DNA of 64,000 nucleotides, from assembly GCA_045613125.1 (NCBI GenBank), contig JAZLAM010000022.1, positions 77,813 through 141,812 on the forward strand, given 5' to 3'. The number at the start of each line of letters is the position of its first letter. Position 1 is the stretch's first letter. Below the pieces are notes generated by a model. The model had not been told where the DNA came from and made no database searches. It saw only the letters and a list, made by a program, of their open reading frames with translations. The stretch comes from Alphaproteobacteria bacterium (GTDB lineage: Bacteria > Pseudomonadota > Alphaproteobacteria > RF32 > CAG-239). Below are positions 1 through 48,645 of this stretch, piece by piece. A program made the translations under genes and the position numbers.

Positions 1-381
1 AAGTTTCCTTTCAATTTCTGCTGCCAAACCAAAAGCAAAAGCCAAAACTTTGCTTTGTATATCATTACCCAAGCGATAATTTTCTTTTATAGTCCAGACT
101 TGGCACTCTTTATTAAGACACGTTTCTAAAATATGCATCACTTCAAGCAGAGAACGCCCTAGACGAGATATTTCACATGAAATTAAAATATCGCCACTTG
201 TTAATTCATCTAATAATTTTCCCAATTTTCTCATGCGCAACGATTTTCGAGATGAAATTTTTTCTTCCACCCATTTATTAATTTTCAACTTATTAAGTTT
301 AGCAAAACGTTCCAACTCATATTTTTGATGCTCTAATGTTTGTTTTGAAGAACTTACACGAATATAACCAATTACAGACAT
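1..381 (-). CDS. Serine recombinase (resolvase/invertase family), N-terminal catalytic domain; C-terminal HTH part runs off the window
   Basis: Reverse-strand translation from ATG at 379-381: MSVIGYIRVSSSKQTLEHQKYELERFAKLN...GDILISCEISRLGRSLLEVMHILETC. The YIRVSS.(K)Q catalytic-serine motif and RLGRS are typical of resolvase/invertase. An RBS-like AAAGGAT lies upstream. Not in the ORF track because it is truncated by the window edge. Confidence 0.7.
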   Translation of the reverse strand, partial: MSVIGYIRVSSSKQTLEHQKYELERFAKLNKLKINKWVEEKISSRKSLRMRKLGKLLDELTSGDILISCEISRLGRSLLEVMHILETCLNKECQVWTIKENYRLGNDIQSKVLAFAFGLAAEIERKL

Positions 382-484
382 TTTTTATCCTTTCTAATTT
401 TTTTAATTTAAACAGTGAAAATTGTTTATCAAATGCAAGTGTTAAAAATAGCGTTCAAAAAAGTAGAAAATTTTCAAAAATATG

Positions 485-511
485 AAATAAAATATTGACA
501 ATATTTTATTT
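485..511. promoter_or_regulatory. 27-bp perfect palindrome (AAATAAAATATTG a CAATATTTTATTT) centred on a TTGACA -35-like hexamer, in the divergent region between the recombinase and the operon
   Basis: Read directly: two 13-bp arms around a single central A. TTGACA at 495-500, then a 17-nt spacer and TAACAT at 518-523. Candidate operator or recombinase binding site. Confidence 0.35.
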
Positions 512-529
512 ATGAAATAACATACAGAT

Positions 530-644
530 GTTCGGGTGCTTGAGGGCAATAGGCACGAACAAACAGACTTGGCCAGTCATCGGTAGTAAAAAGAAGGGAT
601 AGTCCCTTTTTGATGAGTTGGCCTTTCGAAAGAGAGGTTTTTTT
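530..644 (+). promoter_or_regulatory. GC-enriched, structured 5' leader upstream of the six-gene operon (possible riboswitch or attenuator)
   Basis: About 115 nt, noticeably GC-richer than its surroundings. Nested complementarity ggccagtcatc...gatgagttggcc encloses agggatagtccct followed by a U-run. The RBS AGAGAGG at 631-637 lies 7 nt before the ATG at 645. Confidence 0.3.
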
Positions 645-1175
645 ATGTTTAAATATCAACATGGTTTTTGTATCATTCGCTGTCAGCCTTTTCATATCGG
701 TCATGACAGATTGATTAAGAAAATGATGGAAGAATGTGCATATGGCACTGTTGTAATCGGTTCTGCTCAAGAAAGCGGAACTGAAAAAAATCCGTTACCT
801 TATTTTGTTCGCAAAAAAATGATACAAAATGTTTGGCGAAACAATGAAGCTTATGCACGCTTAAGAATCGTCGGAATAAAAGACATAAATAACATACCTT
901 GGAATATACACGTATTAGAAACTATTAAAAAAGAGCAATCAGATAAACCTAAACCTGACATAATTTATGTTGGCGATGAAAGTGAATATTTATTTTTCAA
1001 AAATGATGTTCCAAATGTTGGTATTTGTTCTCGAACCACACAAAACTTTCCGTTTTTATCAGGAAATATGGTTCGTGATATGATTGCTTTAAAAGATATA
1101 AGATATAAAGAATTTGTTCATCCGGAAAATATCGAGCTTATTGAAAAAAGCTTTTATGAGGATGAAAAAAACTAG
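645..1175 (+). CDS. NadM-type (archaeal-like) NMN/nucleotide adenylyltransferase-like cytidylyltransferase-fold protein
   Basis: MFKYQHGFCIIRCQPFHIGHDRLIKKMM matches the (R/G)FQPFH.GH nucleotide-binding signature of NadM-type NMNATs. ATG at 645 has a good RBS; the track start at 618 is a TTG extension. Confidence 0.55.
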   Translation: MFKYQHGFCIIRCQPFHIGHDRLIKKMMEECAYGTVVIGSAQESGTEKNPLPYFVRKKMIQNVWRNNEAYARLRIVGIKDINNIPWNIHVLETIKKEQSDKPKPDIIYVGDESEYLFFKNDVPNVGICSRTTQNFPFLSGNMVRDMIALKDIRYKEFVHPENIELIEKSFYEDEKN

Positions 1176-1268
1176 AAGAAACAATGGTGTTTCTTACCAT
1201 GATTTGGGTCTTGTAGGGACAGTCGAGACAAATCATAATTTAACAACCTACTGTCGAGGAGAAAAAAT

Positions 1269-2462
1269 ATGAATAAAATTAATCAAAACATTCGTTATGT
1301 TGGCACATCTGCTTTTGGCATCAGAATGCCAATTATTCTTGAAGGTGATGACATTAGCAACATCATATCAAACACATTAATTGAAGCAACAAAAACATCG
1401 TATCAACCACTTATCATAAATAATGGTGATATTATCGGCATTACGGAATCTTTCTTAGCGCGCGCACAAGGAAACTATATCACTTTAGATGATATAGCTA
1501 AAGATGTAGCAAAAAAATTTCCGGAAGGTGACGTTGCCGTTGCTTTTCCAATTCTTTCACGCAACAGATTTGCAAAAATTTTGGAAGGTATAGCAAGAGG
1601 TGTAAAAAGAAAAGTATATGTATGTCTTTCTTATCCTGCCGATGAAGTCGGAAATGCCATAATGGATGAAGATGATTTATTTAATTCGGACATTAATCCT
1701 TATACCGATATAATAACCAAACAAGATTTTCTCAATAAATTTGGGGTTTTTCACCACCCTATTACAGGGTCAGACCATATCAAAATGTATGAAAATATAT
1801 CTGATAACATTGAAGTTGTATTGTTAAACAATCCTAAGGACATCTTAAAATTTACAAAACAAATTATAGTTTCGAGTATTCATATACGTCATCGTCAAAA
1901 ACAAATCTTAATCAAAGAAGGTGCAACGGCCTATACTTTAGATGAAATTTGCAACACTCCGTCACCGACAAGAGGTTGGAGCGAATATGGGGTGTTGGGT
2001 TCTAACTATTCTGATAAAGACAGACTTAAACTATTTCCCAGAAACTCTATGGAATTTTGCCATAATTTACAGCAATTATTAAAAGAAAAAACCGGAAAGC
2101 ATATTGAAGTTATGATATATGGTGACGGTGGTTTTAAGTGTCCTAAAACCAAAATTTGGGAATTTGCCGATCCGGTTGTATCTCCTGGATATACTAAAGG
2201 ATTAGAAGGTATGCCTAATGAAATTAAAATTAAAGCTGTGGCTGATAACAATAAAGATAATCCGGAAGAAGCAATAAAAAAAGCAATAAATGATAAAAAT
2301 AAGGCAAATGGTTTTTATTCTATCGGAACAACTCCAAGACAGATAACTGATTTGTTAGGCTCTCTTTGCGATTTAACAACAGGATCCGGCGAAAAAGGAA
2401 CACCTGTTGTTTACATCAAAGGCTATTTTGATAACTACTTAACCGAAGCTCCTAAAGACTAA
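1269..2462 (+). CDS. Hypothetical enzyme with a possible CofE-like (F420-0:gamma-glutamyl ligase family) fold
   Basis: IRMPIILEGDDISNIISNTLI...NNGDIIGITESFLARAQGNY resembles the CofE N-terminal pattern (GDDLaelI...DGDVvvVt.KivSKAEGR). Weak and from memory only. At 397 aa it is longer than canonical CofE. Confidence 0.3.
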   Translation: MNKINQNIRYVGTSAFGIRMPIILEGDDISNIISNTLIEATKTSYQPLIINNGDIIGITESFLARAQGNYITLDDIAKDVAKKFPEGDVAVAFPILSRNRFAKILEGIARGVKRKVYVCLSYPADEVGNAIMDEDDLFNSDINPYTDIITKQDFLNKFGVFHHPITGSDHIKMYENISDNIEVVLLNNPKDILKFTKQIIVSSIHIRHRQKQILIKEGATAYTLDEICNTPSPTRGWSEYGVLGSNYSDKDRLKLFPRNSMEFCHNLQQLLKEKTGKHIEVMIYGDGGFKCPKTKIWEFADPVVSPGYTKGLEGMPNEIKIKAVADNNKDNPEEAIKKAINDKNKANGFYSIGTTPRQITDLLGSLCDLTTGSGEKGTPVVYIKGYFDNYLTEAPKD

Positions 2463-2473
2463 GGAGACAGAAA

Positions 2474-2992
2474 ATGAGTTTAGATCTTAAAAAGAGATTT
2501 GCAAAAATCTCTTATACCATTCGTCACAAAAAGGCTTTTCTGAAAGTTGAAAAAAAGCTCAGAGGAAAAAACACTTGGAGGGGATATTTGCATGACATCG
2601 ATAAACCTTTTTTATATCTGTCTTTATGGATAAAATTTGAAGACATTCAAAAAATTCATAGAAAACATTGTAAACATCATGTCAGAAATAATCTTACAAA
2701 AACAAAAGATGATCTGATAGATACAATTATAGATTGGGAATGCGCTCACATTACAAAGCCTGATAAACCTCTTAATGCGTATGAAACTTTATTGAAATTT
2801 TACCCTGATAAAAAAGATGAGTTTTTACCGATTATAAGAGAACTTTTACCTGAGCAAATCAAAGAAGCTTGCCTTAAGGAAAAACGCCGAGTTATCACAG
2901 AATATTTACGTTTTCAGTCAAACTCTTTACAGTCTTCGTCACTTCCTAAGGCTTCTCTTATCAAAAGTTATACAACTAATATAGGGAGGTAA
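2474..2992 (+). CDS. Hypothetical protein, candidate HD-domain phosphohydrolase; paralog of the 26411..27310 gene
   Basis: YLHDIDKP resembles the LHDIGK HD motif, with further His/Asp downstream (HRKHCKHH, DTIIDWE). The block DWECAHITKPDKPLNAYETLLKFYP is shared with DWECAAITKPDKPLNAFETALHFYP in the paralog. Confidence 0.35.
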   Translation: MSLDLKKRFAKISYTIRHKKAFLKVEKKLRGKNTWRGYLHDIDKPFLYLSLWIKFEDIQKIHRKHCKHHVRNNLTKTKDDLIDTIIDWECAHITKPDKPLNAYETLLKFYPDKKDEFLPIIRELLPEQIKEACLKEKRRVITEYLRFQSNSLQSSSLPKASLIKSYTTNIGR

Positions 2993-2995
2993 ATT

Positions 2996-3553
2996 ATGAT
3001 AATATCAGAAATAGGAGCAACAGTCTGCGGATTGTTGCAAGGAACTCTTGTGCTTTTTAATAAGCGAAGCAACTGGATTTTCTACATCGCACAAATCATC
3101 TTTTTTCTTATATTTTCATTTACTAACAAGCTTTATGGAGATGTTTTAGGTAACAGTATTTATCTTCTGTTAGGAATAAGCGGATGGATTTTTTGGAAAG
3201 ATGAAAACAAATTCCGTATAAGTATATGTTCATCAAAAGAAAGATTAGTTTATATCTCTGTCATAGTTGCTGGATCAGTAATTCTGTTTTTATTGCTTAA
3301 CAGAACGCAAGATCCCTTACCTTTTATTGACTCCGTTACAACTGCTTCATCTTTTGTGGCAACATATTATATGGTGAAAAAAAAGTTAGACACATGGATA
3401 ATTTGGTTTGTAAACGACATTTGCTATATTGCTCAATACAGTCTTTTGGAAAATCAAGCATACTATCTTATAGGCTTAAACTCTATTTGGACCTTTATGG
3501 CAATTGCTTCATTTTTTAATTGGCTTAAAATCATGAAAGGATACACAAAATGA
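2996..3553 (+). CDS. PnuC-like nicotinamide-riboside/nucleoside transporter family membrane protein
   Basis: About 6 TM helices at 185 aa. NKLYGDVLGNSIYLLLGISGWIFW fits the PnuC W-rich conserved segment (..NIYGWY.W). Translationally coupled to its neighbours. Confidence 0.5.
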   Translation: MIISEIGATVCGLLQGTLVLFNKRSNWIFYIAQIIFFLIFSFTNKLYGDVLGNSIYLLLGISGWIFWKDENKFRISICSSKERLVYISVIVAGSVILFLLLNRTQDPLPFIDSVTTASSFVATYYMVKKKLDTWIIWFVNDICYIAQYSLLENQAYYLIGLNSIWTFMAIASFFNWLKIMKGYTK

Positions 3554-4062
3554 AAAAAATATATTTTGCCGGTAAGTTTAATAAAAAGAAAGCAAAAGAC
3601 ATTTCTTTGGAAGAAGCTTTAATCGATGATTTTCGCTCCAAACTTTTAGGTAGTCCAAAATTACTGACAACTTATCAGGATAATCTTATTATAAATAATA
3701 AGTTTCAATATTTAGGACCGTTTTACTGTGAACAAGCTTCTAACGGAAACTTCACATCAACAGATTGTAATGAAGTGTTAAATGCCGAATATGAGTTTGT
3801 TCAAAAAAGTGACATTTTTGTTGTAGTTTTCGGCGAAAGTTTTTCGGTAGGCTCTGTTGTGGAACTTGGTTGGGCTCTAAACTCGGATAAAAAAATTATA
3901 ATTTTATATCAAGAAGAAAATTCTTGTTACACCATAAAATCAGAATATTGGTTTGCAATTGCCGATGCCATCAAAAAAAGCCCCAATTTAACAATATGTA
4001 AATATAAAAATTATTCTGAAATATCACTCTTAATTCATCAAATTTTAGAAAAGGAAATTTAA
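3550..4062 (+). CDS. Nucleoside 2-deoxyribosyltransferase / Rcl (DNPH1)-like Rossmann-fold N-glycosidase-family protein
   Basis: N-terminal KKIYFAGKF and DIFVVVFGESFSVGSVVELGWALNSDKKIIILY match the NDT/Rcl family, with Glu in the position of the catalytic nucleophile. ATGA overlap with the upstream gene. Confidence 0.55.
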   Translation: MKKIYFAGKFNKKKAKDISLEEALIDDFRSKLLGSPKLLTTYQDNLIINNKFQYLGPFYCEQASNGNFTSTDCNEVLNAEYEFVQKSDIFVVVFGESFSVGSVVELGWALNSDKKIIILYQEENSCYTIKSEYWFAIADAIKKSPNLTICKYKNYSEISLLIHQILEKEI

Positions 4063-4063
4063 C

Positions 4064-4885
4064 ATGAAATACAAAGAATTTGAACTGATTTTATCATCAT
4101 TTAAATGTAATAAAAATTGTCCATATTGTACCGCTAAAATAACAAAGTGGCCACACGTTAATGATAAAATTGACAATCTTGAAGAAAAACTTCAATATTT
4201 AAAAGAAAAAGATATAAGCTTCAGATATTTTATATTTTGCGGTAATGGTGAACCATCTTTGCATAGTTTTGAAACCATAAATAAAATTGTTCAAGCTACT
4301 CGAAATGTAAATATTTTTGATGAAAAACGTTTCCAATCATCAGGAAATATTTTTCTTGAACAAGAAAAATTTAATTTAATTAAAGATGATTTTACCATTG
4401 AGATAACCAGAGTGGATTTTGACAGCCAAAAAGATATGAAAGTTTTAGGATATACCCAAGACTATATTAACTCTCCTTTATTTTCTCAAGCAAATGTACG
4501 TCTAAATTATGTCATGCTGAAAAATAAAAGTTTTGATGAATATTTAGTGGAAATAAAAAAATATATCGACACATATCCAAACATCAAAACCGTAAGCTTA
4601 AAAACCTTAAATTTAAATACACTTAATGGAAAAATTGATAATCCTTATTCTCGGTGGATTCTTGAACATGCCCTAACCAAAGATGATGCAAAAAATGTTA
4701 TAGATTTTATAAGCAATCATGCAAATGTGATTCATCAAGATGATAAATTTTTTGATAGAATTGAATGGAATTATAAGGGTGTACCAATTACATTTTATAT
4801 AAAAAAATTATCTTACGGCATATCTAACATAGTATATTATGGAGGCGAACTTGTAGACTATCATCTGAATAAATTAAAGATTTAG
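4064..4885 (+). CDS. Small radical SAM enzyme (CX3CX2C; viperin/MoaA-like core)
   Basis: CNKNCPYCTAK (Cys15/19/22), FCGNGEPSL (GGEP-type SAM motif) and a downstream SSGN motif. 273 aa. Starts 2 nt after the upstream gene. Confidence 0.7.
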   Translation: MKYKEFELILSSFKCNKNCPYCTAKITKWPHVNDKIDNLEEKLQYLKEKDISFRYFIFCGNGEPSLHSFETINKIVQATRNVNIFDEKRFQSSGNIFLEQEKFNLIKDDFTIEITRVDFDSQKDMKVLGYTQDYINSPLFSQANVRLNYVMLKNKSFDEYLVEIKKYIDTYPNIKTVSLKTLNLNTLNGKIDNPYSRWILEHALTKDDAKNVIDFISNHANVIHQDDKFFDRIEWNYKGVPITFYIKKLSYGISNIVYYGGELVDYHLNKLKI

Positions 4886-4970
4886 TTTGTAAGAGTTTCT
4901 CTTTATTAAAACACTTGATTTTTAGAATTCATTCATTAAAATAAGCGCTATAAACAGGAGAATAAAAATT

Positions 4971-5984
4971 ATGAAAAAAATCACATTTGTTTTGAGCATT
5001 ATGATGTTAACATCAAACATCGGATACGCTCAGTCAACTTTAGACTTAACCGAAGCCGATTTTTTAGCTCAAATAAATCAATCTGATTTAAAAGAAAAGT
5101 TTGAACTGCTTGATATCAATAGTGATAAAGCTGTTTCCATTACCGAAATTCAAGAACTGATTAATGGTTTAGACCTTATGACGGAGTTTGAAGGAAACAC
5201 AAAAGAAGAAACCGTAGAACAAATTATGCAAGTGTATCAAAATTCTGATACCAATCCAGATAATCTTCTTAAAGATGATGAGATAAATTTGTTTGTAAAC
5301 GATGTTAACATCATTTTTGCAAAGCAACAATTTAAAAAAATGGACCGTAACGGTGATGGCGTTTATGACTATAATGATGTTCCTCCTTTGGAAGAAAGCT
5401 TGGAAAAATTAAAAGAAGCGACAAAAAAATTACAAGAAGCATCTGATAATCTTAATGCTATAGATCAAGAAGTTTTTACTAATAATTTCGTCAAAGGGAT
5501 TAGCGGATCTGTTGCAAAAGAAGACTTCTATCAAATGGATAAAAATCATGATGGATGCGTTACCGTAGATGAGTATGCAGATTACAGAGTTTTGGCCCAA
5601 GACCGAATTGATGAATTTGATGATACTGATACGAATATTGTGCTTACAAGAGATAATTTTGTAGGCTTGTACGCTCATGAAAAGAAACAAAATCCAAATT
5701 GTTTAACTATAGAAGAATATATAAAAAATCAAAAGGCAATTTTTGATGATATAGATAACATGGATGATTTTGAAAATGAAGAAGAATTTGCCATAAAAAT
5801 ATATAAAGATATGGATACCAATCAAGATAATAAATTAACTCTTGAAGAGTATGTAAACTATAATATGATAACAAATGAAATGACAAAAGATGAGCATATC
5901 AATATGTTTAATTCTTATGAAGGGGCTTCAAAAGGTTGGCTAACTAAAGAAGAATTTATTGAATCTTTCATGATGGCTGATTAA
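4971..5984 (+). CDS. Secreted protein with four canonical EF-hand Ca2+-binding loops
   Basis: Signal peptide MKKITFVLSIMMLTSNIGYAQ. Loops DINSDKAVSITE, DRNGDGVYDYND, DKNHDGCVTVDE and DTNQDNKLTLEE fit D-x-[DN]-x-D-G-x-x-x-x-x-[ED]. Confidence 0.6.
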   Translation: MKKITFVLSIMMLTSNIGYAQSTLDLTEADFLAQINQSDLKEKFELLDINSDKAVSITEIQELINGLDLMTEFEGNTKEETVEQIMQVYQNSDTNPDNLLKDDEINLFVNDVNIIFAKQQFKKMDRNGDGVYDYNDVPPLEESLEKLKEATKKLQEASDNLNAIDQEVFTNNFVKGISGSVAKEDFYQMDKNHDGCVTVDEYADYRVLAQDRIDEFDDTDTNIVLTRDNFVGLYAHEKKQNPNCLTIEEYIKNQKAIFDDIDNMDDFENEEEFAIKIYKDMDTNQDNKLTLEEYVNYNMITNEMTKDEHINMFNSYEGASKGWLTKEEFIESFMMAD

Positions 5985-6002
5985 ATCTAAAAGGATATAT
6001 AA

Positions 6003-6506
6003 ATGAAACTATATCATTATGCTCCTAAAGAAAATACAGTTAAAAAAGATGGGCTATTATCTATTTCAAAGGTTGATAGAAATTTGAGCCCATATGCTCA
6101 TCGTGCCGGTTCGGAAAATAAAGAAGATATATTAAAATGGATGGATAGCACATTTTACGGACGTTCTAGGGCTATTTCTTGTTTAACCGAGCAGATAAAA
6201 TGGAAAGGTAATGACCCTGTGTTAAAAAAAATCGTTGAGGTCACAGTGTTATTTTCATTTGAACTTAATGATTTAATAAAAGATGGGTTGGTTGAATCTA
6301 TATGGTGTAAAAACGGTTCTGATGCAAATGGTCTAAATGAACACATTTATCAAGTTATGCCTAGAGAGATAGATTTATCACCTCTTACTTGGGAAAAAGT
6401 AGATACCTCGAAAGGTTTGCTTTATGCCGTAGTAAAACATTATATGGTCGTCTTAAAAGAAGGTTATATTCCACCTAAATATATAACGAAAGAAAATAAT
6501 ATATAA
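6003..6506 (+). CDS. Hypothetical protein
   Basis: 167-aa ORF with an RBS-like aaaggat upstream; no recognisable motif. Confidence 0.3.
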   Translation: MKLYHYAPKENTVKKDGLLSISKVDRNLSPYAHRAGSENKEDILKWMDSTFYGRSRAISCLTEQIKWKGNDPVLKKIVEVTVLFSFELNDLIKDGLVESIWCKNGSDANGLNEHIYQVMPREIDLSPLTWEKVDTSKGLLYAVVKHYMVVLKEGYIPPKYITKENNI

Positions 6507-6617
6507 TGCCATATTGAGAGCATTTAAATAATCATTGACAATTGCAAAATTGTAAATACAATATTTATAAATTTGATTATGCAGACATTATTAATAAAAA
6601 AATAAAATAATTTTCAT

Positions 6618-6878
6618 ATGAAGAAACAATATGTAAGAGGTCATAAAGTGTCCTCATCGACTGAAAAAGTCGAAAACATTAATGTTTTTCCTGACGGATG
6701 TATCGAAGTGATAACCGACCAAGGCTCCGGTTTTATATTATCACCTCAAGTGTTAAAAGTTATTCCTCAAAAGGAAGATTTTATCACTTTTTATACCATT
6801 TTGGTAACTAAAGTAGTCGGGATTGAACTAAACGGCAATCTGCTTTATTGGTTGTCTGATGATGAAGTTTTTAGCTAA
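6618..6878 (+). CDS. Hypothetical small protein
   Basis: 86-aa ORF; weak support. Confidence 0.2.
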   Translation: MKKQYVRGHKVSSSTEKVENINVFPDGCIEVITDQGSGFILSPQVLKVIPQKEDFITFYTILVTKVVGIELNGNLLYWLSDDEVFS

Positions 6879-47475: not shown

Positions 47476-48645
47476 TTAACAAAATTCTTTTAAGCGTTTG
47501 ACAGCTTCTTTTATGTTTTCTTCCGAACAAGCATAGCTTAGCCTGATATAATCAGGTGCGCCGAAAGATGCACACGGAATTACGGCCAAAAGTTTTTCTT
47601 CCAAAATCTTTTTAGCAAATTCATCAGATGTCATGCCTGTTTTTGAAATGTTACACATTACATAAAATGCACCCTTAGGCTCTACGATTGTCAAATTGTT
47701 TACATCTTTTAACAATTCGCAAATCAGTTTTTTGCGTTTGGCAAAAGCTTCAACCATCATATCAACTTGTTCGTCGGCTTTTCCTTGTAAAGCAACGACA
47801 CCTGCATATTGCACAAAAGATGTTGCATTACTGGTGGAATGGCTTTGCAAAGCACTTATACGTTTGGTAAGCCAAAGTGGAGCTGTTAAATAGCCCAAAC
47901 GCCAACCTGTCATGGCATATGCTTTAGAAAAACCGTTGACCGTGATGGTAAGCTCTGCAATTTTATCATTAAGACTTGCAATACTGATATGTTTATCTTC
48001 AGGATTATATATCAGCTTTTCATAAATTTCATCCGATAAAACCATAATGTTGTTTTTAACCGCAACATCTGCAATCATCTCCAAAGTGTTGCGAGAATAT
48101 ACCGCACCGGTCGGATTGTTTGGAGAATTACAAATAATCAGCTTTGTTTTAGATGTTATGGCTTTTTCCAAATCGGCTCTGACAGGTTCAAAGTTGTTTT
48201 CGGCTGCAGTGTTTACAACAACAACTTTTGCTCCGCTTGCGCTTATCATCTCAGGATAAGAAAGCCAATATGGAGCAAACAAAACGACCTCATCGTCTTT
48301 TCCGCACAAAGCCGCAATTGCTTGAAACAAAGCAAACTTGGCTCCGGTTGAAATTACAATGTTTGCAACATCTGTTTTTATACCGTTACCGGCAAACTTT
48401 TTTACAATTTCTTTTTTTAATTCAGGCAAACCTGACGCTGCCAAATAGCGAACTTTACCGTCATTAATTGCCTTAATACATTCTTCTTTTATGGCTTTAG
48501 GTGTATCAAAATCAGGCTCACCTGCTGTCATGGAACAAATATCTGCACCACTTGCTTTTAGTTCTTTAGCTTTAGCCGAAATAGCAAGTGTCGCAGAAGG
48601 TTGCATTGCTCCCAACGGACTAAAATTTTCTTGTAAATTTTGCAT
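47476..48645 (-). CDS. aspC: Aspartate/aromatic aminotransferase (class I PLP-dependent)
   Basis: SFSKAYAMTGWRLGY (PLP-lysine motif), NPTG, and overall AAT layout. Confidence 0.8.
   Translation of the reverse strand: MQNLQENFSPLGAMQPSATLAISAKAKELKASGADICSMTAGEPDFDTPKAIKEECIKAINDGKVRYLAASGLPELKKEIVKKFAGNGIKTDVANIVISTGAKFALFQAIAALCGKDDEVVLFAPYWLSYPEMISASGAKVVVVNTAAENNFEPVRADLEKAITSKTKLIICNSPNNPTGAVYSRNTLEMIADVAVKNNIMVLSDEIYEKLIYNPEDKHISIASLNDKIAELTITVNGFSKAYAMTGWRLGYLTAPLWLTKRISALQSHSTSNATSFVQYAGVVALQGKADEQVDMMVEAFAKRKKLICELLKDVNNLTIVEPKGAFYVMCNISKTGMTSDEFAKKILEEKLLAVIPCASFGAPDYIRLSYACSEENIKEAVKRLKEFC

Follow-up and report, generated by a model that had tools for sequence, protein, structure and literature searches.

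The DNA at positions 529-644 of the window (the whole stretch of 64,000 nucleotides analysed here) holds a complete riboswitch-like leader, which, together with a second copy of the motif at 1199-1268, on balance appears to represent a new class of OFF riboswitch for NAD+ or a related pyridine nucleotide. The element is very probably a structured cis-regulatory RNA, and its sequence and context indicate that it is most likely a new riboswitch class, outside the described RNA families. An initial annotation of this DNA had proposed a ligand-sensing leader and had named two nested stems in it. The proposal of a ligand-sensing leader gains support from the riboswitch layout, the covariation and the presence of NAD-salvage genes; the named stems are not the sensing structure and belong to a variable expression platform, whereas the conserved part is the hairpin at 529-561 with its proposed loop-loop pseudoknot. 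This conserved 5' hairpin with a pseudoknot and the second copy of the motif (1199-1255) go beyond what had been described before.

NAD+ is among the most abundant coenzymes. Only two classes of NAD+ riboswitches are known, both of which are rare and taxonomically narrow, and those who described the second predicted the existence of additional rare ones (PMC7749635). The candidate presented here is supported by covariation; it counts more than 120 distinct sequences, uses three expression platforms and has clear links to NAD-salvage genes. If confirmed, it would provide a new ligand-binding RNA fold and an account of NAD homeostasis in a widespread uncultured gut lineage; it would also tie an uncharacterised set of CofE-like, DUF5662, N-glycosidase-like, radical SAM and hisG/hisA/hisIE/purC-like proteins to one regulatory ligand.

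Genomic setting and architecture of the two copies

An AT-rich spacer separates a divergent recombinase gene from the first gene of a six-gene operon, and the leader had been noted as conspicuously GC-richer than this context, which is the case: in the window, GC content is 0.39-0.41 over 501-650 versus 0.19-0.26 over 401-550. The divergent gene (1-381, minus strand) encodes a serine recombinase/resolvase-like protein and lies directly upstream of the leader promoter; a link between this gene and the leader RNA is not evident. All other features described below are located on the plus strand unless stated otherwise. Gene 1 of the operon (645-1175) encodes an NMN/NaMN adenylyltransferase (NMNAT)-like protein, a HxGH nucleotidyltransferase that is matched by the Pfam model CTP_transf_like and, below threshold, by the NCBIfam NMNAT models; its nearest solved structures are archaeal NMNATs. 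Gene 2 (1269-2462) encodes a CofE-like, F420_ligase-domain protein of 397 amino acids and is followed by genes for a DUF5662-like protein (2474-2992), PnuC (2996-3553), a nucleoside 2-deoxyribosyltransferase-like/CMP N-glycosidase-like protein (3550-4062) and a small radical SAM protein (4064-4885). In particular, PnuC passes the curated cutoff of the nicotinamide-riboside transporter model (TIGR01528: 70.6 versus 42.45 bits). The combination of CofE-like, DUF5662-like, PnuC, CMP N-glycosidase-like and radical SAM proteins at 1269-4885 is an unusual operon content. A structure search found no sequence relatives of the CofE-like and radical SAM proteins among solved structures, and megablast of window positions 1-5000 against phage and plasmid collections returned no match.

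Three types of the motif are distinguished by their platforms: type A carries a terminator, and types B and C carry a pseudoknot adjoining the ribosome site. Copy 1 in the window belongs to type A. It is preceded by a predicted sigma-70-like promoter (TTGACA-17-TAACAT, 495-523; 10 of 12 consensus matches), and a TTGACA/TAnnAT pair is found at equal distance from helix P1 in homologous leaders. Judging from the position of this promoter, transcription would start at approximately 529-531, i.e., at the 5' strand of P1. The putative aptamer hairpin (529-561), which is delineated by a hairpin-only covariance model (model R2), RNAalifold and covariation, consists of P1 (529-533 with 557-561), a GG bulge (534-535), P2 (536-541 with 551-556) and the conserved loop L2, GAGGGCAAU (542-550). 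Model R2 matches this copy at 527-563 with 26 bits (E 4.6e-4).

The aptamer hairpin of copy 1 is followed by a small hairpin, P3 (566-578), composed of a three-base-pair stem (566-568 with 576-578) and the loop UUGGCCA (569-575). Positions 570-574 of the P3 loop can pair with positions 545-549 of L2 in a kissing or pseudoknot interaction. The pairing is weak in this copy, where an A.G mismatch accompanies three G-C pairs and a single A-U pair. The type A pseudoknot is proposed by analogy with types B and C and from the pairing of GGACUA with UAGUC in locus L041 and a change from U.G to A-U between groups. The stem of P3 varies across leaders (GAC/GUC, AAC/GUU, AACC/GGUU, GAAC/GUUC and AACU/AGUU).

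Two mutually exclusive structures lie downstream of the aptamer hairpin. The first is an antiterminator (571-623), present in the minimum-free-energy fold, in which the loop and 3' strand of P3 pair with the GGCC of the terminator 5' arm (571-582 with 612-623) and enclose a variable hairpin (593-609). It contains the nested complementarity that had been reported earlier, namely the pairing of ggccagtcatc (571-581) with gatgagttggcc (612-623) around the hairpin AGGGA-UAG-UCCCU (595-607), and the stems named at that time are indeed those of the minimum-free-energy fold. The second is a predicted terminator and Shine-Dalgarno-sequestering hairpin (620-644), composed of GGCCUUUC (620-627), a GAAA loop, GAGAGGUU (632-639) and a run of seven U residues (638-644). 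A G+C-containing hairpin of eight pairs with a loop of four nucleotides (620-639) is thus followed by a U run, as in intrinsic terminators, and has a predicted folding energy of -9.4 kcal/mol when folded alone. Its 3' arm is the Shine-Dalgarno sequence of gene 1 (GAGAGG, 632-637). The U-tract and the ribosome binding site AGAGAGG, which the initial annotation had placed in front of the operon, are confirmed as lying immediately 5' of the ATG at 645. The minimum-free-energy fold (-35.8 kcal/mol) is modestly unusual, with a z-score of -2.05 and 8 of 200 shuffled sequences equally stable; because the folding energy alone is only mildly unusual, the case for the element rests on related sequences.

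The spacer that separates genes 1 and 2 holds a divergent copy of the motif, assigned to type C, so the operon contains two putative sensors in tandem. Model R2 matches the hairpin of copy 2 (1199-1236) with 32.9 bits (E 3.2e-6). P1 is formed by AUGAUUU and AAAUCAU (1199-1205 with 1230-1236) and P2 by GUCUUG and CGAGAC (1208-1213 with 1224-1229); the GG bulge is located at 1206-1207 and the loop, UAGGGACAGU, at 1214-1223. The platform of this copy (1250-1268) begins with the pseudoknot partner ACUGUC (1250-1255), which pairs at six of six positions with GACAGU of the loop (1218-1223) and abuts the Shine-Dalgarno sequence GAGGAG (1256-1261) of gene 2, the ATG of which is at 1269. A further hairpin, AGAAGAAAC...GUUUCUU (1179-1198), is found directly 3' of the stop codon of gene 1, and homologs carry a hairpin of other sequence at this position. 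Since the U-rich 5' strand of P1 of copy 2 comes next, this hairpin may act as a leaky terminator, or else have a role in processing or stability.

Distribution and covariation of the motif

Approximately 80 relatives of the gene 1 protein were found in the protein collection, mostly in gut and rumen metagenome-assembled genomes (MAGs) labelled Alphaproteobacteria. Scanning of one genome per species yielded 80 loci, in 79 of which the motif is located upstream of the gene 1 homolog, down to 46% protein identity. Two groups of loci are recognised: group 1, which includes both window copies, and group 2, whose proteins are 46-54% identical to gene 1 and whose leader architecture is near-identical. 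The conserved part of the leader is the 5' hairpin, i.e., P1, the 2-nt 5' bulge, P2 and the loop, which has the general form N(N)AGGG.... In type A homologs, this hairpin is followed by P3 with the loop UGGCC or GAGCC, a variable hairpin, a terminator that uses the Shine-Dalgarno sequence as its 3' arm and, finally, U7 and the start codon; the terminator arrangement is kept in type A leaders, and its group 2 equivalent reads GGCUCCU...AGGAG-U7-AUG. The type A loop is GAGGGC(A/U)AU in group 1 versus G(A/C)AGGGCUUAU in group 2. Some type A leaders (L038, L040, L044-L050, L052-L055, L058, L059, L062 and L066) carry an insertion of 40-140 nt with shared sequence (...TTTATTTGCACACGCTATCTAAATTTATCAGTTTCTAAAATGAAAT...) between P3 and the terminator. 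This insertion may derive from a small mobile element or a repeat; alternatively, it may add structure to the platform.

Each type of the motif has its own gene context: type A precedes the NMN-adenylyltransferase-like gene, type B precedes pncA-pncB-nadE and type C precedes the CofE-like/PnuC operon. Type B was found with a covariance model built from group 2 leaders (model R1), which detected another, weaker copy immediately 3' of gene 1 in approximately 35 group 2 loci. The loop of this copy, GGGCUUAU, is complementary to AUAAGCC(U), located 0-3 nt upstream of the Shine-Dalgarno sequence of the next gene, and that gene starts an operon of pncA (isochorismatase/nicotinamidase-like), pncB and nadE. 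Type C follows gene 1 in every group 1 locus, and the gene order downstream of copy 2 (1269-4885 in the window) is kept across these loci. A compensatory type C variant, in which GGCAGU pairs with ACUGCC, occurs in L024, L032, L033 and L035.

Model R2 gave approximately 150 significant matches in the oriented loci. Every one of them is in sense orientation to the gene that follows and falls within a 5' leader or an intergenic spacer; in the 64-kb window, the model found no further copy beyond the two described above. A match of model R1 at 48166-48228 (minus strand, E 0.24) was not reproduced by model R2 and was treated as noise. In distant homologs of gene 1 from other lineages (28-42% identity, L081-L085), no motif was detected (best score 11 bits), and the RNA thus appears to be confined to one clade. 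Three loci of the set with gene 1 78-90% identical (L004, L009 and L016) are labelled Gastranaerophilales/Gastranaerophilaceae or Lachnospiraceae, and L041, with gene 1 54% identical, is labelled Lactobacillales; these off-clade labels are probably binning or taxonomy errors and not a real spread of the motif. A metagenome pattern scan for type B returned 80 loci, approximately 30 of which are real, the rest being chance matches. The real loci (human gut, rumen) all contain the tandem pair of copies, 670-800 nt apart, and no new gene context was seen among them. Too few positions are invariant across types for a type-independent search pattern.

To evaluate the structure, 124 instances from types A1, A2, B and C were aligned, with padding so that MAFFT left the alignment ungapped. 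In this alignment, which was hand-built from the same sequences that it was used to test, two-sided changes are found in all 13 hairpin pairs and in five of the seven pseudoknot pairs. Paired cells amount to 89.9% compared with 64.3% in shuffled alignments, none of 500 of which reached the observed value, and the covariation score is 0.768 versus 0.13-0.18 for slid controls. The pseudoknot alone is 83% paired, versus 24-44% when slid. Moreover, RNAalifold applied to an ordinary MAFFT alignment independently recovers P1 and P2 with the bulge between them, 11 of the 13 pairs being compensated, so the comparative folding of homologous leaders that had been recommended earlier gave a positive result. 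The second G of the bulge and AGG(G) in L2 are invariant or nearly so in the structural alignment. Co-changing pseudoknot pairs include GGCUUAU with AUAAGCC (type B) and GACAGU with ACUGUC (type C); further co-changes are GGCAGU with ACUGCC, GGCCUA with UAGGCC, GGACUA with UAGUC and the between-group replacement of U.G by A-U. The pseudoknot covariation perhaps amounts to five or six independent events, mostly differences between types. A covariation-supported structure is therefore present in the 5' leaders of functionally related genes, as is expected of a riboswitch.

Predicted switching and candidate ligands

Both mutually exclusive helices and the use of one aptamer on different platforms are found in the motif; to combine a single sensor with several platforms is a typical riboswitch trait. 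The binding of a small molecule, the OFF direction of the response to it and its likely identity are inferred. Pairing between the GCC of the P3 loop and the GGC of the terminator is part of the best fold in approximately 43 of 59 distinct type A leaders; in the remaining leaders, the best fold has the terminator instead. For the window copy, the ON (antiterminated) fold has a predicted energy of -34.9 kcal/mol versus -29.4 kcal/mol for the combination of aptamer hairpin, P3 and terminator, a figure that excludes any pseudoknot or ligand energy.

The simplest model for copy 1 is an OFF switch. When the pseudoknot and P3 are not kept in place, the P3 segment that serves as pseudoknot partner would pair with the 5' arm of the terminator and act as an antiterminator, which would allow read-through and leave the Shine-Dalgarno sequence free. 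A ligand would stabilise the loop-loop pseudoknot and thereby release the terminator 5' arm, so that the terminator could form. Because the terminator 3' arm is the Shine-Dalgarno sequence itself, the ribosome site would be hidden too, and the NMN-adenylyltransferase-like gene would be turned off. In copy 2 (type C) and in type B, the pseudoknot partner abuts the Shine-Dalgarno sequence, and formation of the pseudoknot would block translation initiation. Since the pseudoknot of these types ends at the Shine-Dalgarno sequence, it should hinder ribosome binding; repression is suggested here by a Shine-Dalgarno sequence that adjoins the pseudoknot and does not lie inside it. It is probable that the element binds a metabolite directly.

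The gene contexts (NMNAT-like, pncA, pncB, nadE and pnuC) point to NAD, and distant homologs of gene 1 in other lineages also sit in pncA/nadE/pncB operons. The candidate ligands are NAD+ or a close relative (NMN, NaMN or NaAD), and control by any of them would amount to end-product repression of NAD salvage. An OFF switch is consistent with repression by NAD+ or a precursor close to it. The assignment of the ligand to NAD+ or a pyridine-nucleotide precursor is regarded as evenly balanced. Some type C contexts lead away from known NAD metabolism. In particular, bona fide hisG, hisA-like and hisIE genes (hisG, 138.8 bits versus a cutoff of 75.75; hisIE, 262 versus 187) lie downstream of type C in L025 and of an additional type C copy in L041; they are followed by two purC-like genes, an FmdA/AmdA-like amidase fusion, a P-loop kinase and DUF5662 (L025, 6546-12443; L041, 7837-11931). 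To our knowledge, the hisG/hisA/hisIE/purC-like subset has no NAD link, and we know of no NAD role for the CofE-like and radical SAM genes of the window.

It is rather unlikely that the same fold and switching logic serve a non-pyridine ligand, at least in the group 1 variants, including both window copies. The compounds to be considered are a product or intermediate of the module formed by the CofE-like/PnuC/N-glycosidase-like/radical SAM and hisG-hisA-hisIE/purC-like genes (e.g., imidazole-carboxamide ribotide or an adenylylated form), PRPP and ATP. Such a ligand would suit the position of type C in front of hisG, hisIE, hisA-like, two purC-like and FmdA-like amidase genes. Moreover, single MAGs contain both group 1 and group 2 operons (L025/L070, L031/L080 and L024/L077, in one case on a single contig), and their paralogous NMNAT-like proteins are approximately 50% identical, each with its own RNA variant. 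L2 is 9-10 nt long in group 1 types versus 11 nt in group 2 types. Because both kinds of operon occur in one genome and the loops differ in length, the ligand of group 1 might differ. However, the invariant core (the bulged G and the loop AGGG) is common to all types, the group 1 operon contains an NMNAT-like gene and a PnuC that scores above the transporter cutoff, and the group 2 contexts plainly belong to the NAD Preiss-Handler pathway.

For the group 1 variants, both window copies among them, the compound sensed may thus be NAD+ or a related nucleotide that the CofE-like/his-pur-like module produces. It is tentatively proposed, at slightly less than even confidence, that the motif is a third, structurally distinct class of NAD+-family riboswitch with an H-type/kissing-loop pseudoknot and an invariant loop AGGG and bulged G, that it comes in three or more platform variants and can occur in tandem within one operon of gut Alphaproteobacteria, and that its type C variant places the hisG-hisA-hisIE/purC-like/amidase and CofE-like/N-glycosidase-like/radical SAM module under the same control. 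If true, this would point either to a so far unrecognised pathway linked to NAD or to a sister class of riboswitch whose ligand is an NAD-like nucleotide.

Other explanations and relation to known RNA classes

It is quite improbable that a regulatory RNA-binding protein, and not a metabolite, binds the pseudoknotted hairpin, chooses between antiterminator and terminator and masks the ribosome site. Sequence analysis cannot separate a protein-bound from a metabolite-bound leader, and the element is small (approximately 50 nt) and limited to one clade, which counts in favour of this reading. However, no regulator gene is consistently adjacent in the homologous loci, and the invariant unpaired purines of the bulge and loop lie beside a covarying pseudoknot. 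Furthermore, the core appears on two kinds of platform and in tandem copies within one operon, as is typical of riboswitches.

A plain intrinsic terminator or a leader-peptide attenuator, acting without a dedicated sensor RNA, is very improbable. A terminator-like hairpin with U7 is present, and an open reading frame of 24 codons can be read from the AUG at 528; this AUG is nevertheless absent from homologs (e.g., L008 and L013, with CCGUUC and UCGUUC), and the length differences among linkers do not preserve the frame. Leader-peptide attenuation was rejected because neither the AUG nor the reading frame is conserved. Both versions also leave the conserved 5' hairpin, the covariation of the pseudoknot and the terminator-less types B and C unexplained.

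The preferred reading of the motif as a metabolite-binding RNA was compared with described families. Across the whole window, cmscan with Rfam 15 at the gathering score found three tRNAs only. A permissive search (E<=10) of window positions 380-1300 and of L057 positions 5820-6680 gave only chance-level matches on other stretches, so the Rfam check recommended in the initial annotation left the leader without a family match. A full-text literature search returned no description of a third class of NAD+ riboswitch, nor of any motif associated with pncA, pncB, nadE or nadM; likewise, the main text of the paper on 224 motifs contains no such motif.

In NAD+-I, the ADP moiety is recognised by two bulged stem-loop domains arranged in tandem, and NAD+-II is defined by binding of the NMN moiety of NAD+. 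In NAD+-II, helices P1 and P1a are joined by a large conserved internal loop, P1a ends in a variable terminal loop, and an invariant pseudoknot of 3 bp connects the internal loop with the Shine-Dalgarno sequence (PMC7749635, PMC9841397). The element resembles this class as a cis-acting 5' leader of NAD-salvage and transport genes, in its order of hairpin, A-rich linker and pseudoknot near the Shine-Dalgarno sequence, and as a proposed OFF switch (PMC7749635, PMC9841397). In contrast to NAD+-II, its covarying pseudoknot of 5-8 bp arises from the terminal loop, which is the most conserved part, its internal feature is a 2-nt 5' bulge, and its Shine-Dalgarno sequence lies beside the pseudoknot or inside a terminator arm. 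With NAD+-I, the element shares the association with NAD biosynthesis genes and a plausible end-product control; it differs in its hosts, which are MAGs labelled Alphaproteobacteria. The initial annotation had raised the possibility of an NAD-class riboswitch. Membership in the nadA (NAD+-I) or pnuC (NAD+-II) motif, as a divergent form, would agree with the presence of NAD genes, including pnuC, and with the outline shared with NAD+-II (PMC9841397), but it is extremely improbable given the lack of a covariance-model match to either class at E<=10 in the window or L057, the different pseudoknot architecture and the reported restriction of NAD+-I to Acidobacteria and of NAD+-II to Streptococcus (PMC7749635).

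Types B and C appear to work in the manner of H-type pseudoknot riboswitches. In small aptamers of this kind, such as SAM-II and preQ1-II, a hairpin loop pairs with a 3' segment at the ribosome binding site; binding of the ligand stabilises this pairing and so blocks translation. The motif differs from these RNAs in that it shows no similarity to them in sequence or model, its Shine-Dalgarno sequence is located immediately 3' of the pseudoknot and not within it, and its gene contexts are unrelated. Type A is predicted to resemble guanidine-IV (mepA motif), as a loop-loop contact with a second hairpin would decide whether a terminator forms. The two RNAs are unrelated in sequence, the present element has no Rfam match, and the outcome predicted for it is opposite: the kissing contact of guanidine-IV prevents termination, which makes it an ON switch, whereas the type A contact would free the 5' arm of the terminator and turn expression off.
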